Positions 1,625 to 33,989 of a stretch of DNA of 36,275 nt are shown here, in pieces. Under the pieces are notes generated by a model. The model was given only the letters and a program-made list of their open reading frames with translations, had not been told where the DNA came from and did no database searches. Made by a program: the position numbers and the translations under genes. Every line of letters starts with the position of its first letter. The stretch's first letter is position 1. The stretch is from a bacterium (GTDB lineage: Bacteria > Bacillota_I > Bacilli_A > RF39 > UBA660): NCBI GenBank assembly GCA_963607925.1, contig CAVDFY010000024.1, positions 10,082 through 46,356 of the forward strand, written 5' to 3'.

Positions 1625-2242
1625 CTAGATTTTTCTATATAAACCAATAGCTTTACCAAGAATTGTAACATTATTTAAAATAATAGGTTCTAAAAAATCA
1701 TTTTCAGGTTGAAGTCTTATATGATCACTTTCTTTATAAAATCTTTTTAATGTTACTTCATTCTCATCAGTCATAGCTACAACTATTTCACCATTATTAG
1801 CATTACTTTGTTTTTTAACAATTACAATATCTCCATCAAATATTCCAACGTTTATCATAGATTCACCATTGACTTCTAAAGTAAATACATCATGATTCTT
1901 TGGAACAAACTCTCTAGGTAATGAGAAATATTCATTAGGGTTTTCTATAGCTTCGATCGGATTACCAGCAGCTACTTTTCCAAGTAGTGGGACAGATACA
2001 ACTTCTTCATCTTTAACAGCATATTCATTTGGAACATTTAATTCAATAGTTCTAAATTTGCTTTCAGTTTGATTTATATAACCTTTTTTGGTTAAATTTT
2101 TTAAATGTACAAACATAGTAGCAGTACTATTTAAATTACATATTTTGCATAGTTCTCTAATCGTAGGTGCATATCCTTTTTCAGCCATAAATTTTTTAAT
2201 ATTTGTAAGAATTATCTCTTGCTTATTAGTAAGTTTCTCCAT
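1625..2242 (-). CDS. lexA: LexA SOS repressor
   Basis: N-terminal winged HTH (YAPTIRELCKICNLNSTATMFVHLKNLTKKGYI). Ala-Gly self-cleavage site (GKVAAGNPIEA). Catalytic Ser in NGESM and Lys in TLKRF. I place the start at MEKLTNKQ (ATG 2242) because AGGAAGTGA lies 5 nt upstream; the track ORF start at 2275 has no SD. Confidence 0.92.
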   Translation of the reverse strand: MEKLTNKQEIILTNIKKFMAEKGYAPTIRELCKICNLNSTATMFVHLKNLTKKGYINQTESKFRTIELNVPNEYAVKDEEVVSVPLLGKVAAGNPIEAIENPNEYFSLPREFVPKNHDVFTLEVNGESMINVGIFDGDIVIVKKQSNANNGEIVVAMTDENEVTLKRFYKESDHIRLQPENDFLEPIILNNVTILGKAIGLYRKI

Positions 2243-2261
2243 AAAATCACTTCCTAAATAA

Positions 2262-2290
2262 ATAATATCATACAAATATTTGTTTGTAAA
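2262..2290 (-). promoter_or_regulatory. Candidate lexA promoter with a 12-bp perfect palindrome (putative operator) in the spacer
   Basis: On the minus strand: TTTACA (2285-2290), a 17-nt spacer, then TATTAT (2262-2267). The palindrome ACAAATATTTGT (2272-2283) sits inside the spacer. The leader would be very short. Confidence 0.4.
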
Positions 2291-2292
2291 TG

Positions 2293-3045
2293 TTATTTTC
2301 TAAGTTTTCTTATTAAAGTTTCTCTTAAATCTATTAAATCTTTTTCTTCTATATATGGTAAAAACTCGCTTGGATAAATTATCTCATCTGGAAATCCAAA
2401 TATATCATCAACATAATCATAAAGCCCACCTTTAAACACAGAACTAAACAATTCTTTCAATGCTTCCTCAGGTAAAGCCTGGGCAAGTTCCATAATATTC
2501 ATCTTTGCTAAGTAGGATAAAGATAATTGAGATAAAAGTCTATGTGATGCTGCGACTTTAAATTTAAATCCTTCACCTTCATATTCATCCTTAAATCTAA
2601 CAGAGTCCATATCTACTATTTTAATATCACCATTTCTATTAATCATATTGTTATCAGGATGTATATCCCAAAAAACAATTCCATCTTTGCTTAATCTTTC
2701 TATTGCAACAGCAATTTTTCTAGCAAGTATTAGTTTATCTTTATAAGACATGTTTTTACTAAAAATTAGTTTGGTAGATGGTACATAATCTTTCAAATAT
2801 GTCATTCTAAAACCAAGAAAATCATATTGAGGTGTATATATAATACCGTTAGGTATGACACAATCAGGATTATTGTATAAAGACAATCTCTCTACAGTTC
2901 CTTCTCTAGTAAGCCTATTTCCATGCAAAAGAATTTTATATAAATTATCCTCATTTGGAATATATATATTACTCTCATGATGAATTGAACTTCTTAGAGT
3001 AGGATATACACTTAATTCTCTTTCTGTTTTAAATATCTTTTCCAT
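2293..3045 (-). CDS. Protein-kinase-like fold phosphotransferase (atypical, no obvious Gly-loop)
   Basis: Catalytic-loop-like WDIHPDNNMI followed by IKIVDMDS (HxDxxxxN ... D motif arrangement of the kinase-like superfamily). It lies 50 nt upstream of lexA on the same strand. Confidence 0.6.
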   Translation of the reverse strand: MEKIFKTERELSVYPTLRSSIHHESNIYIPNEDNLYKILLHGNRLTREGTVERLSLYNNPDCVIPNGIIYTPQYDFLGFRMTYLKDYVPSTKLIFSKNMSYKDKLILARKIAVAIERLSKDGIVFWDIHPDNNMINRNGDIKIVDMDSVRFKDEYEGEGFKFKVAASHRLLSQLSLSYLAKMNIMELAQALPEEALKELFSSVFKGGLYDYVDDIFGFPDEIIYPSEFLPYIEEKDLIDLRETLIRKLRK

Positions 3046-3147
3046 ACTTTCACCTATAAATAAAAGTATAATACTATATTTAAATTAGAAAATCAATCAT
3101 TAAATTATACATAATAATGTAAAATAAAAAGTTATTAACAAAAAATA

Positions 3148-3175
3148 TTGACGGGGGGGGGGTACATATTATAAT
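3148..3175 (+). promoter_or_regulatory. Sigma-A-type promoter of the large pilin gene, with G10 in the spacer
   Basis: TTGACG (3148-3153), a 16-nt spacer, then TATAAT (3170-3175). SD AGGTGA at 3182-3187 and ATG at 3194. Confidence 0.65.
3153..3162 (+). repeat. Poly(G)10 homopolymer tract
   Basis: Ten consecutive G read directly (acgggggggg gg). It is the only long G/C homopolymer in this very AT-rich window. Confidence 0.95.
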
Positions 3176-3193
3176 TAGAGTAGGTGATAAGAT

Positions 3194-4303
3194 ATGAAAA
3201 ATAAAAAAGGTTTTACATTAGTTGAGTTATTAGCTGTAATAGCAATACTTGCAATACTTGTAGTACTTGCGATTCCAAATATTATAAGTATGGTAGAAAA
3301 ATCAAGAAAAAATATTGCTGAAACGAGTGCAAAAAGTTTGGTTAGCACAGCTAAAAACTATTATATTAAAAGTGAAATGAATGGAAAAACTATTGAAGAA
3401 ATTGATTTAACAGATCCAGATTTTGAATATACAGGAGAAAGAGTTACAAAAGGAAAACTTACAATGAATAAGGATGGAAGTAGTTATGGAAAAATATATA
3501 TCCGTGGTTATTGTGTAAGTATTAAAAGTAGCGGAGACATATCTAGTGAAAAAGTAGATGCGGAAAATTGCAATCTAGCACCAGAAATGATAACTTTTAC
3601 TCTAAATGGTAATTCTTTTAAAGTAGAAGAAGGCACAACATTAGAAAACTTTTTAAAAAATCTTGATGAAAATCAAGGATTGACAGTTATAAAAGATTCA
3701 ATTACACAATACTATTTTGAAGATTATGATGGTGCAATAATAATTGGTGATAACAACACTAATAAAATAATGGACTTAAAGAACAGAAAAATAAGTGCTG
3801 ATGATGCATATACTACATTATTTGTTTCAATAACAAAAAATTTTTTATGGGATGATATAACTAGCGACAATTATGTTCCTATTTTATATCAATATACATA
3901 TGGTAATACAACAAGCAAAACTATGGTAGTAATATGTTCTAAAAATGATACTTTTGCAGATCTAGCAGATGCCGTTTATCCAGTTCAAATACTATACTTT
4001 CTTGGAGTTAATTATGAGTATTCTGATGTAAATAAAGTTTCAAGTTATTCAGGTAGAGAATTAGTTAATGATTATATCATTGGATATAAAGCAGGATTGA
4101 AATATCATAAATCAAATAATAACGCTGGAAGTGATTTTCATGTTTTTGAAGAATTCTTAGATGGTCAAGGAAATACAATTAAGTTATCTGACAAAGTCAC
4201 AACAAAAAGTTCAGGATTAATTACAGGGAAATATCACATTGTATCAAAAGATACATCATTTGAAGATGCAAAGAAAGAAGCTGTTAATAATCTTAGTAAA
4301 TAA
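3194..4303 (+). CDS. Large (369 aa) type IV pilin / pseudopilin-like protein with a C-terminal module of unknown function
   Basis: Class III signal peptide and methylation motif MKNKKGFTLVELLAVIAILAILVVLAIPN (cleavage after G, with E at +5). The remaining ~330 aa have no motif I recognise, and include a Cys pair (GYCVS...AENC). Confidence 0.85.
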   Translation: MKNKKGFTLVELLAVIAILAILVVLAIPNIISMVEKSRKNIAETSAKSLVSTAKNYYIKSEMNGKTIEEIDLTDPDFEYTGERVTKGKLTMNKDGSSYGKIYIRGYCVSIKSSGDISSEKVDAENCNLAPEMITFTLNGNSFKVEEGTTLENFLKNLDENQGLTVIKDSITQYYFEDYDGAIIIGDNNTNKIMDLKNRKISADDAYTTLFVSITKNFLWDDITSDNYVPILYQYTYGNTTSKTMVVICSKNDTFADLADAVYPVQILYFLGVNYEYSDVNKVSSYSGRELVNDYIIGYKAGLKYHKSNNNAGSDFHVFEEFLDGQGNTIKLSDKVTTKSSGLITGKYHIVSKDTSFEDAKKEAVNNLSK

Positions 4304-4319
4304 ACTATAAGCTTATAAT

Positions 4320-6209
4320 TTAATTTAATAAAACTTTAATAATACTTCCTTCTTTAACTCTAGAGTTAACATTTGGAGTAGTATCAATTACTTTATCCCC
4401 ATCACCAACAAATTCAATTTTGAATCCATTAAGAAGCTTACGGGCTTCTTTTTTAGTTTTACCAATCACATCAGGTATCATAACATATTTAATATCATCC
4501 CATCTATATACTTTAGGAAGCCCGCTTGTGTCTTCTTTTAAATCATAAATTGATATTATATCTTTCAGTACATTACGAGCTATTGGAGCACTTACAACAC
4601 CACCATATTGAGTAACACCCTTGGGATGATCAAGCGCTATATATATAACAAACTCAGGATCATCAGCTGGCATAAAACCAATAAAAGAAAGCACGTAGTT
4701 ACCACTCATATATCTTCCATCACTACCAACTTTTTGAGCAGTACCAGTTTTTCCACCAACTCTATAGTTTTCAATATAAGCATTCCGTCCACTTCCATTT
4801 GCAACGACACTTTCAAGAACATATTTAACAACACTACTAGTTTCTTTAGTTATAACATTCTTTCGTTTAACCATCGAAGTTATATTTTTATTTCCAACTT
4901 CACTAACTACATAAGGAACATACAAAGTACCACCATTAACTATAGAACTAACAGCAGTAACTTGCTGAATAGGGGTAACACTAATACCTTGACCAAACGC
5001 ACTAGTTGCAAGTTCAACTGATCCAATTTTATCCATCTTAAATAATATTCCAGTTCCCTCACCATTTAAATCAATTCCTGTCTTCTTTCCAAAACCAAGT
5101 TCAGTAATGTATTTAAATAATAATTCTTTACCAAGTTTTTGTCCTAAAGATACAAACCCAGGGTTACATGAGTTTTCTACTACTTGCACATATGTTTGAT
5201 CTCCATGTCCCTTTCTTTTCCAACAATGCAAAGTAGCATTAGCAACCTTAACTTTTCCTGAATCATAAAAGTGATCTTCAAATATATTAACTTTTCCTTC
5301 ATTAATAGCAGCAGCAAGAGTAACTATTTTAAATGTAGAACCAGGTTCAAAATTAGCCCATATCGCGAGATTTCTATTGATTACTTCAGCACTATATTCT
5401 TTGTAATTAGACGGATCAAAAGAAGGATAGCTACTCATTGCTAAAATTTCCCCAGTTTTAGGATTCATAACTAGTCCAATCGCGCCTTCTGCTTCATACT
5501 TAGTAAATGCATTTGAAAGTTCATTTTCTAAAGATAGTTGTATATCTAAATCTATAGTAAGTTTTATATCATTACCACTTTTAGGTTCACTATATACTTC
5601 AGGCATAGATAGTCTTTTACCTTTACCATCACTATAATACTTAATGCTTCCATTTTTACCAGTTAATTCTTTATCATATAAAAGTTCAAGACCACTGAGT
5701 CCTTGATTATCTATACCAGTATATCCAATAACATGAGAAAGTAAATTCTTATATTTATAATCTCTTTTAGATTCTTTCAAAAGATAAACACCATCATAAT
5801 TATAACTATTTATTTTATCAGCAACCTCAAAATCAAGATTTCTTCCTTCGGGATGTACTCTTTCAATAGAAGTTTTTTTACTTACATGTTTATACATTTC
5901 ATCATAACTTACACCAAGTATATTAGCTAGGGTAGAAGCAACTTCTTTTTTATTAAGTATTTGATTAGGTACAAGATAAAGACCAACTGTCGTAACATTA
6001 TCAACTATTATTTTTCCATTTCTATCAAGTATTTTACCTCTATCAGCTTGAACAGTTAACTCACGACTCCATAACTCACTCGCAAGAGTATTTAACTTCT
6101 TATATTCTATAACCTGTATATAAAATATCTTAACAAGTACAAAGAAAAACACAATTAATGATATAATAAACACAATTCTAATTCTTTTATTTTGAATACT
6201 TTGAAACAT
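4320..6209 (-). CDS. Class B penicillin-binding protein (PBP2B/SpoVD/FtsI-like transpeptidase) with a C-terminal PASTA domain
   Basis: N-terminal TM anchor. SxxK (GSTFK), SxN (NSCNPG) and KTG (GGKTGTAQ) motifs. PASTA-like tail (IPDVIGKTKKEARKLLNGFKIEFVGDG). Confidence 0.92.
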   Translation of the reverse strand: MFQSIQNKRIRIVFIISLIVFFFVLVKIFYIQVIEYKKLNTLASELWSRELTVQADRGKILDRNGKIIVDNVTTVGLYLVPNQILNKKEVASTLANILGVSYDEMYKHVSKKTSIERVHPEGRNLDFEVADKINSYNYDGVYLLKESKRDYKYKNLLSHVIGYTGIDNQGLSGLELLYDKELTGKNGSIKYYSDGKGKRLSMPEVYSEPKSGNDIKLTIDLDIQLSLENELSNAFTKYEAEGAIGLVMNPKTGEILAMSSYPSFDPSNYKEYSAEVINRNLAIWANFEPGSTFKIVTLAAAINEGKVNIFEDHFYDSGKVKVANATLHCWKRKGHGDQTYVQVVENSCNPGFVSLGQKLGKELLFKYITELGFGKKTGIDLNGEGTGILFKMDKIGSVELATSAFGQGISVTPIQQVTAVSSIVNGGTLYVPYVVSEVGNKNITSMVKRKNVITKETSSVVKYVLESVVANGSGRNAYIENYRVGGKTGTAQKVGSDGRYMSGNYVLSFIGFMPADDPEFVIYIALDHPKGVTQYGGVVSAPIARNVLKDIISIYDLKEDTSGLPKVYRWDDIKYVMIPDVIGKTKKEARKLLNGFKIEFVGDGDKVIDTTPNVNSRVKEGSIIKVLLN

Positions 6210-6468
6210 GTAAAATCACCATTAAATTATATTCAAAAGAGTAACTAGATATTAAAATTAAACCAATAGTGTGTGTAAATATCAAATATAAAATGTTATA
6301 TTTATCTTAAGAGAGGTTATTCATGAATCAAATGACTTATACGATAGAACTATAGATTATTTAAGAAATAAAGAATTTAAAAGTAATCCTGATTCATCAA
6401 AAAATGATTTTAATGTATTTTATAGTTATCATAGTTTTGGTATAGAAAAGAAAGGAAACTATAAATAT

Positions 6469-7152
6469 ATGTATATGTGGATTTATAGTGAAAGTGATTA
6501 CTTAGAAAAAAAAGATTCACTTGCTATATCAACATCTAGTTCAACACCAGTAAAAATAACATTAAAAGATAATAAAGTTGTAAACGTAGAATATCCAAAA
6601 GATGGTAATGAATATGCATCATCTATATATAAATTATTTCCAAGAACTATCGCAAAACAGGTATTAAATTTTGATAATGAAAAAAATATAAATAAACTTT
6701 ATAATGAGATGAGTACTAAGAAAAATAAATATTATAATTATTTAAATATGGATATGGGAAAACTTACTATAGATGATATAAGTTATGGGAATCATATATT
6801 TAATATCACTAAAAGAAAAGAATGTATAACATTAAGTTTAGATATATATATAAATAATAAATATAGATTAATTACTGCATATAAAGCATTTAAACCAAAT
6901 CAAATATGTACAATGGAACTAAGATACACTAAATCAGTAGAAGGAACATATAATTATAATATAATGGAAATAATAAAACATAGTAGTGATGCAAATTTAT
7001 TACAATTTAATAGTGATAACATGTCGGTATATGAAATACTTTCAGGAAAAGGTCAATACTTTATAACAGATGATGACAATAAACATTTAAAAGAGTTCTT
7101 AAAAAGTATAAATGTAGATTTAGCTCTTTGTGCAGAACCAGATTATAAGTGA
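6469..7152 (+). CDS. Hypothetical protein; the 5' end is uncertain because the frame is open from 6292
   Basis: ORF of 227 aa from the first ATG. The same frame has 59 further sense codons upstream without an in-frame ATG, while a good SD+ATG at 6311-6325 is in another frame (see findings). Confidence 0.55.
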   Translation: MYMWIYSESDYLEKKDSLAISTSSSTPVKITLKDNKVVNVEYPKDGNEYASSIYKLFPRTIAKQVLNFDNEKNINKLYNEMSTKKNKYYNYLNMDMGKLTIDDISYGNHIFNITKRKECITLSLDIYINNKYRLITAYKAFKPNQICTMELRYTKSVEGTYNYNIMEIIKHSSDANLLQFNSDNMSVYEILSGKGQYFITDDDNKHLKEFLKSINVDLALCAEPDYK

Positions 7153-7182
7153 CAGAAATATCACTTTTTAAATGCATAAAAA

Positions 7183-7200
7183 AAGAAACCGAGGTTTCTT
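7183..7200 (-). terminator. Intrinsic terminator downstream of the pilus ATPase gene
   Basis: Stem AAGAAAC/GTTTCTT with loop CGAG. On the minus strand it is followed by a T-run (the complement of aaaaaaa at 7177-7183). Confidence 0.6.
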
Positions 7201-8623
7201 ATAAATTGAAATATTCTATTTCTCCAGGTTTAACATTATCATGCGGTATCTCATTTTTATGATTATCAGGATCACTTGGAATCAATGCTTCATAATCTAT
7301 ATCAGGTTCATTAGACATAATTTCTAATTTGTCTTCATGATGTTCTGCATTAATTATATCAGGCTTATTATTTTCATTATGATTTTGACTATCATTTATA
7401 CTATTTTGTAAATTATCATCTTCATAATTAGATAAGTCATTATCAAGATCAACAGCTTTAAGTATTTCACTAAATGATGTTTCGCCAAGTAATACTTTTT
7501 CTAAACCATCTTGAAGTAGGGTAATAACATCACTTTTATATACAAGTTTTCTAAGTTCATGTTTAGGCATTGCATTTGTAATAGCATCTCTTATATCTTC
7601 ATTAATTAATAAAACTTCATAAAGACCAATACGTCCAGTATATCCTCTAAAACATTTATCACAACCATCTTTATTAGCATCGAACATTTGATTAACATCT
7701 TTATTCAATACTTTTTTAAATACACTTTTTTCATATGGAGTAGTATCTCTTAATTGTTTACAATGAGGACAAAGACGCCTCGCTAATTTTTGAGATATGA
7801 TTCCAGTAAGAGCTGAACCAAGCAAATAACGTTCTACATCCATATCAGTAAGTCTTTCAATTGTATTAAGTGAGTTATTTGTATGTATTGTTGATAATAC
7901 TTTGTGTCCAGTAATAGAAGCACGAACAGCAATTCTTGCAGTTTCATCGTCACGAATTTCTCCAATCATTATAATATCAGGGTCTTGACGTAAGATACTT
8001 CTTAAAACATTTGCGAATGTAAGACCAATCTCACTTTGAGATTGTACTTGGTTAATACCAACTATATCCATTTCGACTGGGTCTTCAACTGTAATTATAT
8101 TAACATCAGGAGTATTCATCTTTTGAAGAATAGAGTAAACTGTAGTAGATTTACCTGAACCAGTAGCACCAGTTACAAGTATAATACCATTTGGTACTTT
8201 AACCATCTTTTCTATTTTATCTAAACTATCTTCAGAAAATCCTAATGTATCAAGTCCTTGTAAACTCTTTGAATAGTCAAGGATACGAATAACCACTTTT
8301 TCGCCACAATTAGTAGGAAGAGAAGAAACACGAAGGTCTAACATCTTTTTACCAATTCTACTTTTAATCGCACCATCTTGTGGTAAACGAGTTTCCATAA
8401 TATTCATTCCAGCAATCATCTTAATACGAGAAATCATATTTCGTTTATATTTACCAGGTATAATAGAATAGTCTGACAAAATACCATCAATACGAATTCT
8501 AATTTTAACATTTTCTTTAGAAGGATCAAAGTGAATATCACTAACGTTCTTCTTAACAGCGTCCATAATGATTTCATTAACGATTTCAACTATGGGCATT
8601 TTTTCAAAGTCAAATTCCTTCAT
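7199..8623 (-). CDS. Type IV pilus / competence-pseudopilus assembly ATPase (GspE/PilB/ComGA family) with a long acidic C-terminal tail
   Basis: Walker A GATGSGKST, Asp box, Walker B (DPDIIMIGEIRD), His box (GHKVLSTIHTN), and the tetracysteine motif CPHC...CDKC typical of assembly ATPases. The conserved core starts at residue ~11 (no N1 domain). The last ~80 aa are D/E/N-rich and low complexity. Confidence 0.9.
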   Translation of the reverse strand: MKEFDFEKMPIVEIVNEIIMDAVKKNVSDIHFDPSKENVKIRIRIDGILSDYSIIPGKYKRNMISRIKMIAGMNIMETRLPQDGAIKSRIGKKMLDLRVSSLPTNCGEKVVIRILDYSKSLQGLDTLGFSEDSLDKIEKMVKVPNGIILVTGATGSGKSTTVYSILQKMNTPDVNIITVEDPVEMDIVGINQVQSQSEIGLTFANVLRSILRQDPDIIMIGEIRDDETARIAVRASITGHKVLSTIHTNNSLNTIERLTDMDVERYLLGSALTGIISQKLARRLCPHCKQLRDTTPYEKSVFKKVLNKDVNQMFDANKDGCDKCFRGYTGRIGLYEVLLINEDIRDAITNAMPKHELRKLVYKSDVITLLQDGLEKVLLGETSFSEILKAVDLDNDLSNYEDDNLQNSINDSQNHNENNKPDIINAEHHEDKLEIMSNEPDIDYEALIPSDPDNHKNEIPHDNVKPGEIEYFNL

Positions 8624-8650
8624 AACGTACCTCTTTCTATTCTAATATAT

Positions 8651-8679
8651 ATTATATATGAGAATTAATATTATTTCAA
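8651..8679 (-). promoter_or_regulatory. Consensus sigma-A promoter for the ATPase gene
   Basis: Minus strand: TTGAAA (8674-8679), a 17-nt spacer, then TATAAT (8651-8656). SD AAGAGG lies upstream of ATG 8623. Confidence 0.7.
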
Positions 8680-8687
8680 CAAAATTA

Positions 8688-8716
8688 TTGTTATTATTTT
8701 TAAAATTTGTTATACT
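8688..8716 (+). promoter_or_regulatory. Divergent promoter for the small pilin (and proS)
   Basis: TTGTTA (8688-8693), a 17-nt spacer, then TATACT (8711-8716), with TG at the extended -10 position. Confidence 0.55.
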
Positions 8717-8738
8717 TTCTTATAGTAGGAGTGCATGT

Positions 8739-9164
8739 ATGAAGAATAAAAATGGTTTTACAATGATTGAACTTTTAGCAGTATTAGGGATACTTGCATT
8801 ACTAGCAGTAGTAATAGTTCCAAATGTATCATCTTTAAGAAAAAAAACTTTAGAACAAACTTATGAAAATAGAGTAAATCAAGTTAAAATTGCTGCGAGA
8901 GAATGGGGAAGCGACAACCTAATAAGTGTTCCATCTTCAGTTTCAAAAGAATACACAGACCAAAGTACATGTGATAGTGATTGTGTTTGCGTAACAATAC
9001 AAGAATTAATAACAGAAGGATATCTAACTGGAGATAAAAATGAAAAAAAGACTTTAACAAATCCAATAACAAACAAAGAAATGAATAATTTATTAGTATG
9101 TATAAGATATGATACAAATAATATAGAAACAAGAGAGTTAGTTTCATACATTGCAGGTGAGTAA
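8739..9164 (+). CDS. Type IV pilin / ComGC-like pseudopilin (141 aa)
   Basis: MKNKNGFTMIELLAVLGILALLAVVIVPN prepilin motif. SD AGGAG lies 8 nt upstream of ATG 8739; the track start at 8658 adds a non-pilin leader and has no SD. The C-terminal part has a Cys cluster (CDSDCVCV) and the ELITEGYL motif common in Firmicutes pilins. Confidence 0.85.
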   Translation: MKNKNGFTMIELLAVLGILALLAVVIVPNVSSLRKKTLEQTYENRVNQVKIAAREWGSDNLISVPSSVSKEYTDQSTCDSDCVCVTIQELITEGYLTGDKNEKKTLTNPITNKEMNNLLVCIRYDTNNIETRELVSYIAGE

Positions 9165-9165
9165 C

Positions 9166-10866
9166 ATGAGAATGTCTAATAATTTTTTTATAACTCGTAA
9201 AGAATTTCCAAATGATGAAGATTGTATTTCAGCTAAATTATTAATTAAAAGTGGAATGATTTATAAAAATGATAATGGAATTTACTCATACTTACCAATA
9301 GGATTAAAAGTACTAGAAAATATTAAAAATATCATTAGAGAAGAAATGAAAAAAAATAATGCTGACGAAGTATTAATGCCATCTCTAGTTGATAGAAGTG
9401 TTTTTGAACTTACTAATAGAGAAAAAGTATTTGGAAAAGAAATATTTAATATATCAGGTAGAAATAATAAAGAGTATTCTCTTTGTCCAACACACGAAGA
9501 ATTATTTGCTCTACTAGTAAGAAATAAAATTAGAAGTTATAAAGATCTACATTTTACATTATTTCAATTAAGTAATAAGTTTAGAGATGAAGTTCATCCA
9601 GAGTATGGACTTATAAGAAAAAAAGAGTTTTATATGGCTGATGCTTATAGTTTTGATGCTGATGAAAGTGGTCTTGATATAAGCTATGATAAAATGTATC
9701 AAACTTTCAATAATATATTTAGAAGATTAAATATAGATACAATGGTTGTAAGAGCAGATCCTGACTCAATGAAAGGAACTTCTAGTGAAGAATTTCAAGT
9801 AATTTGTGATTATGGTGATAACGAAGTAGTAAAATGCAAAAAATGTAGTTATAGTACAAATATTGAAGACGCTTCATCATACGATTCATATACAAAAGAA
9901 GAACATCAATTAAAAAGTACACCAAATAAAAAAACAATAAAAAGCTTAACTGAGTTCTTACAAGTTCCAGCAAAGAACATTATAAAATCTCTTATAATAA
10001 AAGTAGACGAAACATATAAAATGATATTATTAAGAGCTGATGCTGAATTAAATGTTAATAAATTAAAAAAAGTATTAAAATGTGACAATATAGAAATACC
10101 AAGTGAGTATGAACTTGATAGAATGGGTACAAAAATAGGATATATTGGTCCTGTTAAAACAACAATGACAGTAATTGCAGATAATGAAGTTAAAAGCATG
10201 TATAATGCAATTTGCGGAAGCAATAAAGAAAATTATCATTATAAAAATGTAACCCCAGGTATAGACTTTAAAGTAAATAAATATGCAAATATTAAGTTGT
10301 TTAATGAAAATTCTAAGTGTCCTAGATGTAAAAGTGAATGCGAAATAATAAGAGGAATTGAAGTTGGACATATATTTAAACTTGAAACAAATTATAGTGA
10401 AACATATAATTTAAGATATTTAGATGAAGTAAATGAATTAAATTATGTACATATGGGTTCATATGGAATAGGTCTTGATAGATGCATCTCAGCAATAGTA
10501 GAAAAACATAATGATGAAAAAGGAATAATTTGGCCTATGGAAGTAGCTCCATATAAAGTAGGTATTGTCATAATAAATGTTAATGATAAAGAAACTTATA
10601 AATATGCAAGTAATCTTTATAAAAAATTAGAACAAATTGGTATAGATACAATTCTAGATGACAGAAAAGAAACAGTTGGTATTAAATTCAATGATATGGA
10701 CTTAATGGGTATACCTATTAGAATAACAATAGGAAGAAAACTAGAAGAAGGAATGGTAGAATTCAAATTAAGAGATGAAGAACAAAGCCATGACATAGAT
10801 AGAGATGTAATTATAAAAACAATATTAGATACCATTAATTCAAAAAGTAAAAAATTATATAATTAA
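9166..10866 (+). CDS. proS: Prolyl-tRNA synthetase, bacterial type with INS editing domain (copy 1)
   Basis: N-terminus MRMSNNFFITRKEFPNDEDCISAKLLIKSGMIYKNDNGIYSYLPIGLKVLENI. Motif 2 region FRDEVHPEYGLIRKKEFYMADAYSF. Motif 3 GSYGIGLDRCISAIVE. The central insertion is ~180 aa. ATG 9166 follows SD AGGTGAG, which lies inside the last pilin codons. Confidence 0.9.
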   Translation: MRMSNNFFITRKEFPNDEDCISAKLLIKSGMIYKNDNGIYSYLPIGLKVLENIKNIIREEMKKNNADEVLMPSLVDRSVFELTNREKVFGKEIFNISGRNNKEYSLCPTHEELFALLVRNKIRSYKDLHFTLFQLSNKFRDEVHPEYGLIRKKEFYMADAYSFDADESGLDISYDKMYQTFNNIFRRLNIDTMVVRADPDSMKGTSSEEFQVICDYGDNEVVKCKKCSYSTNIEDASSYDSYTKEEHQLKSTPNKKTIKSLTEFLQVPAKNIIKSLIIKVDETYKMILLRADAELNVNKLKKVLKCDNIEIPSEYELDRMGTKIGYIGPVKTTMTVIADNEVKSMYNAICGSNKENYHYKNVTPGIDFKVNKYANIKLFNENSKCPRCKSECEIIRGIEVGHIFKLETNYSETYNLRYLDEVNELNYVHMGSYGIGLDRCISAIVEKHNDEKGIIWPMEVAPYKVGIVIINVNDKETYKYASNLYKKLEQIGIDTILDDRKETVGIKFNDMDLMGIPIRITIGRKLEEGMVEFKLRDEEQSHDIDRDVIIKTILDTINSKSKKLYN

Positions 10867-10984: not shown

Positions 10985-12991
10985 ATGAAAATAAAAAAAC
11001 AATTATTATTTTTGTTATTAATATTGATATTTCCATTAATACTAAATGCAGAAATGTCTGTAGATTATAGTAAAACTATAAAGCATGCAAATAATTACAT
11101 AAAGGATTTTCAATATAATAGACTATATATTGTAAGTGGAACAACAGATTTTTCAGTACCATTTGAATACAAAAACAACGCCCTAACAGTAAATAGTTCA
11201 TTTAAAGCAGGTGGCCTTTTAAATATACAAGAATTTGATATATCAAAGGGTGAAAGTAATAGTTCTTATCTATTCTCAGGAAGAGATTATTTTACTATGA
11301 CTGAATCTGGAAGTGACAGTGTCTATGTAATTGAAAAAGGAGCAAACACTAATTATACTCTTAAACCAAAAACAGAAAAAAGTGGTGTAAGAGTTACAGA
11401 ATATGTAAAAGAAAAAATAAGAGTAACAGGAACAGGTGAATATGTAAATCCTTGGGTATTTATTAAACCTGAATATAAAGTAAATATAACATTAGTAAAT
11501 GCTAATTCAAATGGAGCAACTTCAATAGTAGAAACTCTAGAAGTTGAAGATAAAGAATATCCAATAAGTGCTAATAAAAGTTACTTCAAATATAAAGGAG
11601 ATATGACTTGTAGCGGTTATTATGAAGAAGTAAGCGTTAACGGAAATAAACTTGTAATAAAAGGATTAACAAGCGATTTAAAATGTACAATTAAATATAC
11701 TCCAGATAACTTCAAAGTAACTGTTAATGCAACTAATGCAACAGTAGAAGGAAACGAAAAATCATTCCCAGCTGAAACTAATGGTACAGTAAAAGTAACA
11801 GGAACAGAAGGATATGCTCTAAGTAGCTTATCATGTACAAACTCACAATCTGGAAGCTATAAAGGTGGAAATTTAATTATAACTAACATAACCAATGATA
11901 CTGTTTGTACAATGACTTTCACTAATCCTGGAAAATCTTTCTCATATACAGGTTCAACAGCATCATATACAGTTCCATATACTGGATATTACAAATTAGA
12001 AGCATACGGAGCACAAGGAAATGGTTCAGGTGGAAAAGGTGGATATGCAAGTGAAATAATACTTATGACAAAGAACACTTCATTAACTATAAATGTAGGC
12101 GGACAAAACGGATATAATGGAGGAGGCTCTGGATATTATAATGGTGGAGGAGCTTCAACTATTAAAAAAAGTTCAACTATTATTTTAGCAGGTGCCGGTG
12201 GTGGAGGAGGTAACTCTGGAACTGCTGGTGGAAAAGGTTCAGGATCAGGTGGTGCATCATCAGGTGGAAGCGGAACAAATGGTGGACCGGGTAGTGCTGG
12301 AACAAATGGAGCCGGAGGAGGCTCAGGATATAATTATTCATATCAAACAAACTGTAGTAGTTGTTACTATGGTTCAAATACTTGCACAGGTGGATATGTA
12401 AGTACAAACTGTAGTAGTTGTTATTATGGAAGAAACACATGTAGTTATGGCTGTGATACAGAATGCGCTTGGTGCCAATATGATTGTACTGGCCCATATG
12501 GAAGTAGTTTTACAGTAAATGGATGGTGTCCTTGTACTAATAATGGTGGAAGTGGAAGCTGTAGTAATCTAGGATGCTTAAATAGAAGCGGATATGTAAG
12601 AACATCAACAACTTATAATGGACGAAGTAACTTAAGTTCAGGATGCAGCGCAACAAGTGCAACTAGTATTACCGTTATAGGAATTTGTTCATGGAATGGT
12701 GGCTGCTCATCTGGATACAGTTGTAGTAAATGCGGAACAAATAGAACAAACTGTAGTAGTTGCTATTATGGTTCAAATACATGCAGTTATGGTTGCGATA
12801 GTGTTTGGGATAGTTGTAAAACTGGATCAAATACATGTAGCTATGGTTGTGATACAAAAACAGTTGCATATAAATCAGGTTACGGTGGAACAAATAAATT
12901 TGATTCATCAGCAACAGAAAAACAAAATCTTGAAGGACAAAGAACTGGAAATGGACAAATAAAAATTAGTTTTTACAAAGAAAGTGAATAA
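10985..12991 (+). CDS. Secreted protein (668 aa): shared N-terminal module, two Ig-like/B-repeat-like segments, and a glycine-rich domain interrupted by a Cys-rich repeat region
   Basis: Sec signal peptide MKIKKQLLFLLLILIFPLILNA. Residues ~35-162 align at ~45% identity with the N-termini of the next two large proteins. FSYTGSTASYTVPYTGYYKLEAYGAQGNGSGGKGGYASE...VGGQNGYNGGGSG...AGAGGGGGNSG matches the bacterial glycine-rich-protein pattern. There are 26 Cys in ~210 aa, with the repeated motif NCSSCYYGxNTC(S)YGCD. Confidence 0.85.
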   Translation: MKIKKQLLFLLLILIFPLILNAEMSVDYSKTIKHANNYIKDFQYNRLYIVSGTTDFSVPFEYKNNALTVNSSFKAGGLLNIQEFDISKGESNSSYLFSGRDYFTMTESGSDSVYVIEKGANTNYTLKPKTEKSGVRVTEYVKEKIRVTGTGEYVNPWVFIKPEYKVNITLVNANSNGATSIVETLEVEDKEYPISANKSYFKYKGDMTCSGYYEEVSVNGNKLVIKGLTSDLKCTIKYTPDNFKVTVNATNATVEGNEKSFPAETNGTVKVTGTEGYALSSLSCTNSQSGSYKGGNLIITNITNDTVCTMTFTNPGKSFSYTGSTASYTVPYTGYYKLEAYGAQGNGSGGKGGYASEIILMTKNTSLTINVGGQNGYNGGGSGYYNGGGASTIKKSSTIILAGAGGGGGNSGTAGGKGSGSGGASSGGSGTNGGPGSAGTNGAGGGSGYNYSYQTNCSSCYYGSNTCTGGYVSTNCSSCYYGRNTCSYGCDTECAWCQYDCTGPYGSSFTVNGWCPCTNNGGSGSCSNLGCLNRSGYVRTSTTYNGRSNLSSGCSATSATSITVIGICSWNGGCSSGYSCSKCGTNRTNCSSCYYGSNTCSYGCDSVWDSCKTGSNTCSYGCDTKTVAYKSGYGGTNKFDSSATEKQNLEGQRTGNGQIKISFYKESE

Positions 12992-12995
12992 AAAT

Positions 12996-15635
12996 ATGAA
13001 GAATAAAAAGGAAAAATTATTACTATTATTATTGCTACTGCCATTCAGTATAAATGCTGTGGTAAGAAATAATTATGACATAACAAAAGAAAATACAAAT
13101 CTTTATATTAATGATTTTGATAGAAATGATGTATACATTATAAAAAGTACTTCTTCTCTTAATGTTCCGTTTATATATAACAACGGAACATTGAGCGTAG
13201 ATACATATTTCAAAAATGGTGGTTTATTAAATAGATATGAATTTTTAATATCTAAATCTTTAGAAAATGATACATATTTATTTAATGGAAATAATTATTG
13301 GACATTAACATCAAGTGGAGATAAAGTATATATGATTGATAATTCTGCCACAGATAATATATCTCTTCAAGAAAAAACAGTATTAAGTGGTGGAAGAGTA
13401 ACTGAATACATAAAAGAAGAAACTGGAGTAAGTGGAAGTGGAAAATATACAGACCCATGGGTATTTATTGAAAGATATAAAGTAACAGCAAAAAGTTCAA
13501 ATACATCATATGGAACAGTTACACCAAGTGAAAAGTATGTAAATAAAGGTGAAACACTAACATTTAATCTTTCACCAGCAAGTGAATATGAATATAGCAA
13601 CAATGATTGTGGAGCAACATATTCAAACGGGAAATTAATTCTATCAAATATTCAAGCAGATAAAAATTGTATAGTAAATTTCAAAAAGAAAGTTTACAAA
13701 TTAACTTTCAACAATAATGGTGGAAGCGAATGTACAAGCCAAACAGCAACAAGTGGTAATGAATGGGGAACACTTTGTACACCAAAAAGAACAAATTATA
13801 GTTTCTTAGGCTGGTTTACATCAGCGACTGGCGGAACAGAAGTAACTTCGAAAACAATAGCTACAAAAGACCAAACTGTGTATGCACATTGGGAATATAC
13901 AACATTAAAATTAACCTATGATAATAATGGTGGAAGTGGATGTACAAGCAAGAACTTTGTTAAAAATCAAAAAGTAGGAACTTTATGTGTTCCAACGAAA
14001 GCATCAAATGAGTTTGCAGGATGGTACACATCAGCAACAGGTGGAACAGAAGTAACAAGTGACACTGTATTAAGTGAAGCAACAACAGTATATGCACACT
14101 GGACACCAACATGCTTTGCGTTTACACCATCAACAGGAACAATAACAGATTATTATGATTATAAAGGAAACGATTCTTCAAACGGAAGTTGTTCAAGAAG
14201 CGTTACAATACCAAGTACAATAAGTGGTAAAACTGTATTGAAAATAGGCAATTACTCATTTGAAGAAAAAAATATAACATCAGTAACAATACCAAATACA
14301 GTAACTGAAATAGGGTATGGTGCTTTTGAAAGTAATAAATTAACAACAGTGACAATACCTTCTAGTGTAACTACAATAAAAAGCAGTGCATTTGGATACA
14401 ATAACATTACAACTCTTACATTAAATGAAGGATTAGTAACTATAGGAGACTCAGCATTTACAGAAAATGCAATTAAGGCATTGAAAACACCAAGTACAAT
14501 GGTATCAATAGGATATAGTGCATTCTACAAGAATAAAATTACAAGTCTTACATTAAACGAAGGATTAACTTCAATTGAAGGATATGCCTTTTATAATAAT
14601 AGCATTCCAAGTGTAAAAGCGCCTAGCACTCTAGTATCAATAGGGTACTCAGCATTTGAAGAAAATAATATATCTTCATTAACTTTAAATAGTGGCTTAA
14701 AAACTATAAATGATTTTGCATTTTTTAAAAACAAAATACCAAGTGTTACAATACCTACATCTGTAACATATTTAGGAAATGCATCATTTAATGATAATAA
14801 ACTTCCGGATAGTACAGCAACTCTTTATAAAAGAAACAGTGATGGAAGTGAAGATAAAACAACAGTAGTTAGTTATGGTGGTTCTAAAAGATCAGGAGTT
14901 GTTGTGCCATCAACTGTAAAAACAATAGATAATTATGCATATTATTATAATAATATAACTAGTATAACAATACCAACAAGTGTTACAAAAGTTGGTAATC
15001 ATGGAGTGGCATTTAATAATTTAAGTACAATAAACATTCCAAGTTCAGTTACATATATAGACTATAGAGGATTTGCAAATAACTGGGCTAGCACAATAAA
15101 TTATACATCAAGTAACTTAACATATTTAGGAAATGCAGCATTTAATGGTAATTCAACAAGCACAACAAATGCATTAAAATATAAGAAAAATGCAGATGGA
15201 ACAGATGACACATCAGTAGTAGTCAGCTATTCAGCAAATAGAACAAATGTTACATTACCAAGTACTGTAAAAGAAATAGCAGATAGTGCATTCTTTAATG
15301 CATTTATATATAGTATTACGATTCCTGAGGGAGTAACATATATAGGTTCAGGAGCATTTAGATGGTGCTACTTATCTAATGTAACAATTCCAAGTACAGT
15401 AACTGAAATAGGATATGATGCATTTGAAAAATATTATGACAGTAGTTGGAGTGAAAATTTAAACCCACTTACTAAAATAATAAATAAAACAGGTAAATCA
15501 TTTAAATGGCATACAATAATAAATGGTGAATATTACTATGATTCTAGTTTAAGTGATGATTACTACTATAAAGATTATGAATTTGAAACAGGTACGGTTA
15601 AAAATCCTAGAGGAAACATAACTGTAACAAAATAA
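12996..15635 (+). CDS. Secreted protein (paralog A): shared N-terminal module, InlB-type B-repeats (Listeria-Bacteroides repeat) and BspA-type leucine-rich repeats
   Basis: Signal peptide MKNKKEKLLLLLLLLPFSINA (the alternative GTG start at 12984 overlaps the upstream stop). Two copies of Y(K/T)LT(F/Y)xNNGGS(E/G)CTS...GW(F/Y)TSATGGTEVTS...VYAHW. There are about 20 repeats of the type IPxSVTxIGxxAFxxNxIT. I see no LPXTG, SLH, choline-binding or C-terminal TM anchor. Confidence 0.88.
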   Translation: MKNKKEKLLLLLLLLPFSINAVVRNNYDITKENTNLYINDFDRNDVYIIKSTSSLNVPFIYNNGTLSVDTYFKNGGLLNRYEFLISKSLENDTYLFNGNNYWTLTSSGDKVYMIDNSATDNISLQEKTVLSGGRVTEYIKEETGVSGSGKYTDPWVFIERYKVTAKSSNTSYGTVTPSEKYVNKGETLTFNLSPASEYEYSNNDCGATYSNGKLILSNIQADKNCIVNFKKKVYKLTFNNNGGSECTSQTATSGNEWGTLCTPKRTNYSFLGWFTSATGGTEVTSKTIATKDQTVYAHWEYTTLKLTYDNNGGSGCTSKNFVKNQKVGTLCVPTKASNEFAGWYTSATGGTEVTSDTVLSEATTVYAHWTPTCFAFTPSTGTITDYYDYKGNDSSNGSCSRSVTIPSTISGKTVLKIGNYSFEEKNITSVTIPNTVTEIGYGAFESNKLTTVTIPSSVTTIKSSAFGYNNITTLTLNEGLVTIGDSAFTENAIKALKTPSTMVSIGYSAFYKNKITSLTLNEGLTSIEGYAFYNNSIPSVKAPSTLVSIGYSAFEENNISSLTLNSGLKTINDFAFFKNKIPSVTIPTSVTYLGNASFNDNKLPDSTATLYKRNSDGSEDKTTVVSYGGSKRSGVVVPSTVKTIDNYAYYYNNITSITIPTSVTKVGNHGVAFNNLSTINIPSSVTYIDYRGFANNWASTINYTSSNLTYLGNAAFNGNSTSTTNALKYKKNADGTDDTSVVVSYSANRTNVTLPSTVKEIADSAFFNAFIYSITIPEGVTYIGSGAFRWCYLSNVTIPSTVTEIGYDAFEKYYDSSWSENLNPLTKIINKTGKSFKWHTIINGEYYYDSSLSDDYYYKDYEFETGTVKNPRGNITVTK
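13173..14284 (+). repeat. Copy 1 of a 1112-bp perfect direct repeat
   Basis: A line-by-line comparison with 16295-17406 (offset 3122) found no mismatch. The first mismatches are at 13172/16294 and 14285/17407. Confidence 0.9.
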
Positions 15636-18993: not shown

Positions 18994-20229
18994 ATGAAAC
19001 CAATAAATGTAACAAGTGAGATAAATCCACTAAAAAAAGTATTAGTTCATAGACCTGGTAGAGAATTATTGAATCTTACACCGGATAGTCTTGGTAGATT
19101 ACTATTTGATGATATTCCATACTTACCAGTTGCCCAAGAAGAACATGATGAATTCGTAAGAATCTTAAAAGATAATGGAGTAGAAGTAGTATATTTAGAA
19201 GATTTGATGACTGAAGTACTAGATTTAGATCCTGAAATTAGAGAAAGATTTATTACTCAATTTATCTATGAAGCAGGTATTCGTACTCCAAAATATAGAG
19301 GACTTGTATATGAATACTTATCATCAATAGAGAATAATAGACTTCTAGTTTTAAAAACTATGGAAGGAATTATTAATAATGAAGTAATTAAAGCTAAAGC
19401 TAAAAAAGGTAAAAGTTTAGTAGACTCAATCAAAGAAGATACTCAATTTGTAGTGGATCCTATGCCAAACTTATACTTTACTCGTGACCCATTTGCATCA
19501 ATCGGAAATGGTGTATCACTAAATAGAATGTACTCAGTTACTCGTAATAGAGAAACAATATATGCTGAATATATATTTGAGTATCATCCAGATTATAAAG
19601 GACAAGTAGATAAGTATTTTGATAGATACAGTGCTTATCATATTGAAGGTGGAGATGTTCTTAATTTAAATGAACATATCTTAGCAATAGGAATTAGTCA
19701 AAGAACATGTGCTGATGCTATAGAAGAATTAGCATATAAAGTATTTGCTGATAAAGATGCTAAAATTGATACTATCTTAGCATTTACTATTCCAGAATGT
19801 CGTGCCTTCATGCATTTAGACACTGTATTTACTCAAATAGATGTAGATAAATTTACTTATCATCCAGGAATTATGGGAACACTTAAAGTATTTGAAATAA
19901 CTAGTGATGGTGAAGGAGGACTTAATGTTAAAGAAAGAAATGCTTCACTTGAAAAGATATTAGAAGATTATCTTCATAGAAAAATAACTTTAATACCATG
20001 TGCTGGTGGAGATAAGATTGGCGCTGAACGTGAGCAATGGAATGATGGAAGCAATACATTGTGTATAGCTCCAGGAGTAGTTATTGTTTATGATAGAAAT
20101 AATATCACTAATGAATTATTAAGAGACAATGGAATTAAAGTTCTTGAAATGCATAGTGCAGAGTTATCTAGAGGTAGAGGTGGTCCAAGATGTATGTCAA
20201 TGCCTTTAGTAAGAGCTGACAAGCCTTGA
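18994..20229 (+). CDS. arcA: Arginine deiminase
   Basis: MKPINVTSEINPLKKVLVHRPGRELLNLTP N-terminus, FTRDPF, HLDTVFT, and the catalytic Cys in GGPRCMSMPL. Confidence 0.93.
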   Translation: MKPINVTSEINPLKKVLVHRPGRELLNLTPDSLGRLLFDDIPYLPVAQEEHDEFVRILKDNGVEVVYLEDLMTEVLDLDPEIRERFITQFIYEAGIRTPKYRGLVYEYLSSIENNRLLVLKTMEGIINNEVIKAKAKKGKSLVDSIKEDTQFVVDPMPNLYFTRDPFASIGNGVSLNRMYSVTRNRETIYAEYIFEYHPDYKGQVDKYFDRYSAYHIEGGDVLNLNEHILAIGISQRTCADAIEELAYKVFADKDAKIDTILAFTIPECRAFMHLDTVFTQIDVDKFTYHPGIMGTLKVFEITSDGEGGLNVKERNASLEKILEDYLHRKITLIPCAGGDKIGAEREQWNDGSNTLCIAPGVVIVYDRNNITNELLRDNGIKVLEMHSAELSRGRGGPRCMSMPLVRADKP

Positions 20230-33912: not shown

Positions 33913-33989
33913 TGGTAGCGACGGAGGGATTCGAACCCACGACCCCCTGGGTATGAACCAGATGCTCTAGCCAACTGAGCTACATCGCC
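33913..33989 (-). tRNA. tRNA-Met (CAU), elongator type, CCA encoded
   Basis: The reverse complement GGCGATGTAGCTCAGTTGGCTAGAGCATCTGGTTCATACCCAGGGGGTCGTGGGTTCGAATCCCTCCGTCGCTACCA folds as a cloverleaf. The anticodon loop is UUCAUAC. It closely resembles B. subtilis elongator tRNA-Met. A lysidine-modified tRNA-Ile2 cannot be strictly excluded. Confidence 0.88.

Follow-up and report, generated by a model that had tools for sequence, protein, structure and literature searches.

A poly-G tract in the promoter spacer of a modular type IV pilin gene, a candidate homopolymer switch in an uncultured human-gut Bacillota

The window analysed here is a stretch of 36,275 nt of bacterial DNA with 28% GC and 15.8% G, in which a gene for a modular type IV pilin-like protein is preceded by a run of ten G residues. 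The pilin gene lies between one divergent and one convergent gene and is monocistronic. Type IV filament machinery is encoded nearby, in the form of an assembly ATPase and a second, smaller pilin, while no platform protein or prepilin peptidase was seen within the window. The genes around the tract, in window coordinates, are as follows.

2293-3045, reverse strand: divergent kinase-like gene, upstream of the pilin gene (gene map)
3194-4303, forward strand: modular type IV pilin-like protein, 369 aa, monocistronic (Pfam N_methyl and AlphaFold model)
4320-6209, reverse strand: convergent PBP gene, downstream of the pilin gene (gene map)
7199-8623, reverse strand: PilB/GspE-type assembly ATPase (Pfam T2SSE, E 1.8e-124)
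8658-9164, forward strand: small pilin-like gene without an upstream G tract (Pfam N_methyl and homopolymer census)

The product of the large pilin gene combines a class III signal peptide, a pilin helix and head, and further C-terminal modules. Its N-terminus, MKNKKG/FTLVELLAV (also given as MKNKKG/FTLVELLAVIAILAIL), has the features expected of a class III signal peptide, namely a short basic leader up to a G, F or M at position +1, E at +5, and a hydrophobic helix. A preliminary description, made from the letters of the window, had claimed a type IV pilin of 369 aa downstream of the tract, and the claim held. Pfam N_methyl (PF07963) matches the open reading frame with an E-value of 1.3e-8, and the AlphaFold model (pLDDT 77) has a pilin helix (residues 9-62), then a beta-sheet head and additional modules toward the C-terminus, with low-confidence loops at residues 269-281 and 301-312. 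Foldseek searches with the C-terminal part returned only weak matches to tandem beta-grasp folds (di-ubiquitin/ISG15-like) with low TM-scores, and one member of the pilin cluster is labelled by NCBI as a 'GspH family protein'. Together, the pilin signature and the structure model predict that the regulated product is surface-exposed. Between lineages the pilin differs by 10-45%, and its neighbouring proteins are far more conserved.

Several other features of the region are recorded here in their own right. The PBP gene of the window is intact, and in three other contigs, L118 (8102-14230), L120, and L122, the neighbouring SpoVD-like gene is split into parts of 341 and 307 aa by an insert of ~5 kb. 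This insert encodes a 576-aa large serine recombinase, a desulfoferrodoxin, a short-chain dehydrogenase, a flavin reductase/rubredoxin protein, and an ArsC-like protein, and it is reminiscent of the intervening elements that recombinases excise from sporulation genes. Further along the window are two prolyl-tRNA synthetase genes of different types (9151-10866 and 27124-28545), one bacterial with an editing domain and the other archaeal/eukaryote-like with a ProRS-C_1 domain. Two paralogous surface proteins (12984-15635 and 16115-18886) carry BspA-type leucine-rich repeats and Listeria-Bacteroides repeats, and the second contains a 132-nt tandem repeat at 17506-17874 (2.8 copies, 85% matches). 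At 18994-22613, an arginine deiminase gene is followed by a 795-aa open reading frame that fuses a carbamate-kinase-like (AA_kinase) part to a DcuC-type transporter, which suggests arginine fermentation for energy, as in Mollicutes.

Upstream of the pilin gene, the G tract occupies most of the spacer of a promoter-like sequence. Read directly, positions 3148-3200 are TTGACGGGGGGGGGGTACATATTATAATTAGAGTAGGTGATAAGATATGAAAA, which divides into TTGACG GGGGGGGGG TACATAT TATAAT TAGAGT AGGTGA TAAGAT ATG. The elements of this region, together with the promoter-like site of the divergent gene, are listed below.

3068-3096, reverse strand: promoter-like site of the divergent kinase-like gene, TTGATT-17-TATTAT (consensus scan and conserved 5' block of the alignment)
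3148-3153, forward strand: -35 hexamer TTGACG, its sixth base being the first G of the tract (sequence and consensus scan)
3153-3162, forward strand: G10 homopolymer, the proposed slipped-strand mutable element (homopolymer census and orthologous length variation)
3154-3169, forward strand: promoter spacer of 16 nt, G9 plus TACATAT (sequence and consensus scan)
3170-3175, forward strand: -10 hexamer TATAAT, within the invariant block ATATTATAAT (alignment of 12 alleles)
3182-3187, forward strand: Shine-Dalgarno sequence AGGTGA, 6 nt before the ATG (direct reading)

On re-reading, the layout claimed in the preliminary description (TTGACG, a 16-nt spacer, TATAAT) proved correct in all coordinates and counts, and so did its claim that the G run ends 32 nt upstream of the start codon: the last G lies 32 nt before the A of the ATG at 3194. 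The description had also stated that the window holds no comparable G/C homopolymer and that a chance origin was unlikely. Our census agrees, as the G10 run is the sole G/C run of at least 6 nt in 36,275 nt, the next longest in the whole window being a C5 within a tRNA at 33943. Runs of ten or more G's are expected about 5e-4 times in such a window (~3e-4 under an order 0 model and ~6e-4 under order 1). The length of G10 in the window strain comes from one complete contig in one assembly. At this length the run lies in the range in which uninterrupted homopolymers are able to slip (~7-8 nt or more), and at the level of sequence it is placed between the -35 and -10 elements of the gene that it would regulate. 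The divergent promoter-like site does not overlap it.

In the consensus scan, TTGACG-16-TATAAT scored 11 out of 12, joint best in the region 2000-9500, but the scan found 60 promoter-like sites overall compared with 56.2 in shuffled sequences, which is no enrichment, so the score alone proves nothing. If these hexamers are used, transcription is predicted to start at about 3181-3183, which would give a leader of only ~12 nt, unusually short, with the Shine-Dalgarno sequence at its extreme 5' end.

We searched with the pilin protein and read the upstream regions of the contigs found. Full-length pilin relatives came solely from gut metagenome assemblies. Relatives of proteins encoded in the window carry the names Mollicutes bacterium, Bacilli bacterium, and Clostridium sp. 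CAG:524, from which we take the host to be an uncultured low-GC Bacillota of the human gut. Twelve distinct alleles (pilin identity 74-100%) could be aligned, and in these TTG.C and ATATTATAAT are invariant, the latter being the longest invariant run of the intergenic alignment. The hexamers named in the preliminary description are thus conserved islands of the intergenic region, and the -35 stays near consensus (TTGACG/C/A/T). All indels between TTG.C and ATATTATAAT are confined to the G-rich block. At this place in the promoter, homologous G-rich tracts are present in over 40 contigs that were assembled independently. Scans of genome and metagenome contigs for the exact flanks around a variable tract returned no match, a relaxed flank pattern gave one chance match (L103), upstream of a gene in a GC-rich organism, and exact look-up of the divergent kinase-like protein found no further contigs on record. 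The alleles are listed by lineage.

Window allele: TTGACG, G9 TACATAT, spacer 16 nt
P0122, the commonest lineage (5 contigs shown, 19 collapsed): TTGACC, AAGGGGGGAG TACATAT, spacer 17 nt
P0001: TTGACC, GGGGAGGGGG TATATAT, spacer 17 nt
L023, the GTDB representative: interrupted G-rich block AGGGGAGGGGG, spacer 18 nt
P0124, two subgroups: GGGGAGGGGGG TATATAT, spacer 18 nt, and GGGGAGGGGG AATATAT, spacer 17 nt
P0124, subgroup of L119 and L123: A-G8 and A-G9, respectively, then TATGTAT, spacers 16 and 17 nt
P0003, 4 samples (L017-L020): TTGACA, GGGGGAGTGGGG TATGTAT, spacer 19 nt
P0005, 7 samples: TTGCCC, GCGGGGGAGGG TAAATAT, spacer 18 nt
P0004: C-G8-TACATAT, spacer 15 nt
P0136, 5 samples: C-G7/9/9/10/9-ACATAT, spacer 13-16 nt
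P0002: A-rich, without a G tract, spacer 17 nt
P0007 group, 57% identity: without a G tract, spacer 17 nt

Across all alleles the spacer measured 13 nt in one contig, 15 nt in four, 16 nt in three, 17 nt in eleven, 18 nt in thirteen, and 19 nt in four. The values center on the 17-18 nt optimum, and those on the short side come from pure G tracts of at least 7 nt. The preliminary description had calculated that G11 would restore an optimal 17-nt spacer, an arithmetic that agrees with the 17-18 nt spacers of the stable alleles. In one lineage (L016) the G block is replaced by an A-rich spacer of 17 nt, and both hexamers are retained.

Comparison of near-identical contigs showed that tract length is unusually variable in sister lineages. 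The five contigs of lineage P0136 encode a 100% identical pilin, have the same flanks around the tract, and carry tracts of G9, G7, G9, G10, and G9, and the tract supplies the only indel columns in their 2.6-kb alignment. Relative to L109, contig L113 is identical over 3.0 kb (G9 in both), L112 differs by one SNP and a one-G tract indel over 3.2 kb, and L110 differs by 15 SNPs and a single 2-nt gap, again the tract, over 15.7 kb. A close relative of this lineage, L021, has G8. The same pattern was seen in lineage P0124, where L119 has G8 and L123 has G9; the tract contains the only internal indel columns among 10 contigs over 3 kb, and its 50-nt block has 8 variable sites compared with a mean of 0.9. 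Overall, stretches of 3-16 kb that are otherwise 99.9-100% identical have no indel outside the tract. Such differences between assemblies could partly reflect homopolymer consensus calling, but those of 2-3 nt exceed the usual Illumina error.

Variation was also related to the purity of the tract. Pure tracts of at least 7 nt vary within the lineage in both lineages available, whereas interrupted or G6 tracts showed no within-lineage variation (7, 4, 5, 3, 3, and 2 contigs), although the look-up displays similar places only once and may hide variation in the G6 lineage. Examples of stable tracts are GCGGGGGAGGG in 7 samples, AGGGGGAGTGGGG in 4, and AAGGGGGGAG in 5 contigs shown. This dependence on length is what slipped-strand mispairing predicts. 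The preliminary description had proposed slippage of the tract and had held that an invariant length across isolates would speak against it. Sister lineages instead contain G7/G9/G9/G9/G10 and G8/G9, and the slipped-strand reading is supported by the orthologous loci as far as comparative sequence reaches. Only one other contig contains the exact pilin of the window (L001, 1.6 kb, Logan SRR13434521). It ends inside the tract, beginning with GGGGG at positions 1-5, which is not where a clean de Bruijn branch between G10 and G11 would break, so this break is a weak sign of tract heterogeneity.

Similar tracts were found at pilin genes of other species. A pilin-alignment scan, with one genome per species, gave 80 loci, mostly from metagenome-assembled genomes (MAGs) of uncultured gut Bacilli/'Tenericutes'. 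The 563 kb of low-GC loci contained only ten G/C runs of at least 7 nt, and five of these fell within 150 nt upstream of a pilin-like open reading frame, a zone covering 2.8% of the sequence (binomial probability ~4e-6). The ten runs are listed below, beginning with the five upstream of pilins.

L093, run 3572-3583: TTGACA-AAAGTT-G12-TATACT, before a 468-aa pilin with DUF6273
L057, run 3952-3962: TTGACA-AAAGTCAT-G11-CATAAT, before a 593-aa pilin
L095, run 3837-3843: TTGAAA-N11-G7-TATAAT, before a pilin whose open reading frame runs off the contig
L067, run 3935-3944: TGTAAAC-G10-TAA..., before a 358-aa coiled-coil pilin
L102, run 1864-1873: TGTAAAC-G10-TAA..., before a 371-aa coiled-coil pilin
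L091, 7109-7118: TTGACAAAAGCCCT-G10, contig end directly after a TTGAC motif
L035, 4150-4161: TTGACTA-G10, contig end directly after a TTGAC motif
L099: G9 near a contig end, without a TTGAC motif
L027, 1555-1562: G8 in a promoter-like context (TTGTCG...TATTAT), 30 nt upstream of a 504-aa protein
L033, 5537-5544: G8 inside a long open reading frame for a repeat-rich protein (GGIAG-type repeats)

Three of the five pilin-upstream runs (L093, L057, and L095) lie within spacers of the TTGACA/TTGAAA...TATAAT type, and the other two (L067 and L102) share the motif TGTAAAC-G10-TAA and are located farther upstream of the start codon. In these pilin-upstream runs the sense strand always carries the G's. 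The tract adjoins the -35 in the lineage of the window and the -10 in L057, L093, and L095, and this change of position between loci is easier to reconcile with a device that works by length than with a fixed site for a protein. Three contigs from three assemblies (L001, L035, and L091) end inside such tracts, which indicates that the tracts break short-read assemblies, through either heterogeneity or poor sequencing of poly-G. The 504-aa protein of L027 has a camelysin-like N-terminus and DUF285 repeats, and would be a non-pilin surface protein bearing the same promoter device; the G8 within the coding region of L033 is a possible frameshift switch.

Given this recurrence, the modular type IV pilin genes of uncultured gut Bacilli appear to use the poly-G spacer device across the clade. 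A bolder and more tentative reading, to which we give somewhat worse than even odds, is a clade-wide pilin 'phasome', in which the spacer poly-G would be tied specifically to large modular pilins across uncultured gut Bacilli with reduced genomes, and occasionally to other surface proteins (DUF285). The records of the hosts bear the names Mollicutes, Tenericutes, and Clostridium sp. CAG, and the C-terminal modules of the pilins include DUF6273, coiled-coil, beta-helix-like, and beta-grasp-like types. If this were the case, the pilus adhesin modules on each cell would be a stochastically chosen subset, and the system would be a Gram-positive counterpart of Mycoplasma vlp, built on pili, that could be read directly from metagenomic reads.

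Our preferred interpretation, to which we assign a probability of about two in three, is that the G10 run is a slipped-strand mutable element in the spacer of a housekeeping-sigma (sigma-70/SigA-type) promoter and sets the level of pilin transcription. In this scheme, replication slippage would add or remove G's, and the G count would set the distance between -35 and -10: G10 gives 16 nt, G11 would give 17 nt, and G9 or fewer would give 15 nt or less. The spacing would in turn set how well RNA polymerase contacts both hexamers. Within a clonal population, pilin transcription may then be high in some cells and reduced or absent in others, as expected of a contingency locus or rheostat. We regard the locus as a probable contingency promoter in the manner of porA, fim, and vlp. 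The compared contigs themselves show the tract, the conserved hexamers on either side of it, the hypermutability of the tract in sister lineages, and the recurrence of such tracts at other pilin promoters. Use of this promoter, an effect of tract length on transcription, frequent and reversible switching in the window strain, and any selective benefit are what we infer; the ON, intermediate, and OFF states would be expected by analogy with porA.

Two lineages fit the simple model poorly. It would call P0003, which has an interrupted tract and a stable 19-nt spacer, OFF, and it would call P0136, which has mostly G9 and thus a 15-nt spacer, mostly OFF. Such populations would have to be largely OFF in the gut, unless the promoter accepts a wider range of spacers than expected. 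The same spacers, 19 nt in L017-L020 and predominantly 15 nt in L109, L111, and L113, occur in apparently successful lineages and are what would be expected if the tract were a neutral mutational hotspot that slips with little effect on pilin expression, its variation being tolerated noise. The promoter scan, with no enrichment over shuffles, is also compatible with neutrality. We nevertheless consider a neutral hotspot unlikely, because, despite a genomic GC content of 28%, a G-rich tract has been kept at one position among lineages whose pilins share 74-100% identity, and like tracts recur at the pilin promoters of other species. Neutral decay should erase such tracts, as has happened in L016 and the P0007 group, and the hexamers on either side of the tract are the most conserved elements of the intergenic region.

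The G-rich block could instead be a sequence-specific element, such as a regulator site or a structural spacer motif, in which case its length variation would be incidental. We regard this as quite improbable. Interrupted runs do retain their G-richness (GGGGAGGGGG, GCGGGGGAGGG, and GGGGGAGTGGGG), and the constant orientation of the run, with G on the sense strand, would suit such an element. However, the blocks have no motif in common beyond 'G's', as they range in length from 6 to 13 and are interrupted at differing places, and no operator-like inverted or direct repeat was found at the site. The A-rich 17-nt spacer of L016, which stands in place of the block between retained hexamers, and the different placement of the tract within the spacer in other species also argue against a fixed binding sequence.

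Remoter still is the idea that the tract lies in the 5' untranslated region of a transcript that starts farther upstream, where its effect would be on the structure, stability, or translation of the mRNA instead of on promoter spacing. The very short leader predicted from the TATAAT promoter would be explained in this way, and a weak 9/12 site (TAGAAA-18-CATAAT at 3086-3115) could serve as the upstream promoter. Yet the upstream region is poorly conserved between lineages compared with the invariant TTG.C and TATTATAAT, the G run has no C-rich pairing partner (no C run of at least 6 nt occurs in the window), and Rfam finds nothing at the promoter region. An assembly or sequencing artefact, from two-color chemistry poly-G or a mis-polished homopolymer, is barely credible despite the contigs L001, L035, and L091 that end in such tracts, since the tract is internal to the 36-kb window with normal synteny on both sides and, contrary to a worry raised in the preliminary description, its existence is upheld by homologous tracts in the 40 and more contigs, which come from independent studies and several assemblers (MEGAHIT, SPAdes, and Logan) and always have the tract between the same hexamers.

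Other candidate mechanisms were rejected. An invertible promoter was set aside because the inverted matches around 3148-3175 are all AT-rich and of low quality (70-88% complementary) and no recombinase is adjacent. A riboswitch or leader RNA is excluded by the shortness of the leader and by Rfam, which finds only a tRNA in the window. By eye, the spacing does not fit sporulation-sigma (SigE/SigK-like) promoter motifs, and no CGAAC...GTTCG-like motif of a LexA box is visible in 3100-3194, although lexA is located two genes away. An activator-dependent promoter of the Bordetella fim type was judged unlikely, though less firmly, since the near-consensus -35 is conserved and no upstream repeat or operator-like element was found. 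The TANB77 pilins (PMC11680825) are 143-236 aa long and form a different cluster, with no link to the gene or taxon of the window established.

We conclude that the locus is a well-documented candidate for a homopolymer promoter switch in an uncultured, low-GC Bacillota of the human gut. Most known homopolymer promoter switches belong to mucosal pathogens, and for gut commensals the phase variation described so far consists largely of DNA inversions in Bacteroidales. Our literature search turned up no description of poly-G tracts in the promoters of type IV pilin genes from gut Bacillota, and judging from the sequences compared here, what is new is very probably the occurrence of a known type of switch in a new lineage and gene class. 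The gene that it would control encodes a type IV pilus subunit, which probably serves in adhesion or host contact. As the tracts are short (7-12 nt), the ON/OFF state would be readable from ordinary metagenomic reads, and the pilus states of an organism that cannot be cultivated could be compared between hosts, over time, and with phage or immune pressure. The same tracts break assemblies, and the consensus of a MAG freezes one arbitrary state.

Repeat-based switching of promoters is an experimentally established class, with porA, hifA/B, fim2/3/X, and vlp as members (PMC3899988, PMC1891110). The closest parallel in architecture is porA of Neisseria meningitidis, with poly-G between the -35 and -10 (van der Ende et al. 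1995, as summarised in PMC3899988). There, as at the window pilin, the poly-G is found in the sigma-70-type spacer of a single surface-protein gene. Gain or loss of one G in porA reportedly changes the transcript level, with G11 giving 17 nt, G10 intermediate, and G9 poor expression, and this arithmetic by G count equals that of the window. The two differ in that porA encodes an outer-membrane porin of a Gram-negative pathogen and its switch is experimentally proven, whereas the window concerns a type IV pilin of a gut Bacillota and the evidence is comparative.

Three further systems share other elements. In Bordetella pertussis, the promoters of the major fimbrial subunits fim2, fim3, and fimX contain C-stretches whose length differences between strains track transcript level, and sister species of Bordetella carry the interrupted tracts C6TC3 and C9TC8 (PMC1891110). 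Like the pilin loci, this system combines G/C homopolymers at pilus-subunit promoters, several paralogues, and interrupted tracts in relatives. However, the fim genes depend on the activator BvgA, the tract spaces the activator site from the -10, and the fimbriae are of the chaperone-usher type; the window promoter has a consensus -35 and no known activator site. In Haemophilus influenzae, the hifA/hifB fimbrial promoter contains TA repeats in its spacer (PMC3899988), again a -35/-10 spacer repeat that controls a pilus subunit gene. That repeat is a dinucleotide and switches overlapping divergent promoters together, whereas the divergent promoter of the window (3068-3096) is separate. For vlp of Mycoplasma hyorhinis, a poly-A tract in the promoter spacer is cited in PMC3899988. 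The likeness here extends to the host, which is low in GC, has a reduced genome, and is Bacillota/Mollicutes-like, and to the presence of a spacer homopolymer at several paralogous surface-protein genes; combinatorial surface variation by vlp matches the clade-wide pilin pattern. It differs in its poly-A tract, in its lipoprotein products, and in having several switchable genes per genome, while the pilin pattern was compiled across species.

In habitat, the nearest comparison is Bifidobacterium breve, for which PMC9187656 describes a replication-slippage ON/OFF switch that governs sortase-dependent pili in a gut commensal. As described there, B. breve and the window organism would have in common a human gut commensal lifestyle and pilus expression governed by slippage, and would differ in the pili, which are sortase-dependent in B. 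breve rather than built from a type IV pilin. The B. breve switch is said to act through a frameshift in the coding region rather than through promoter spacing.
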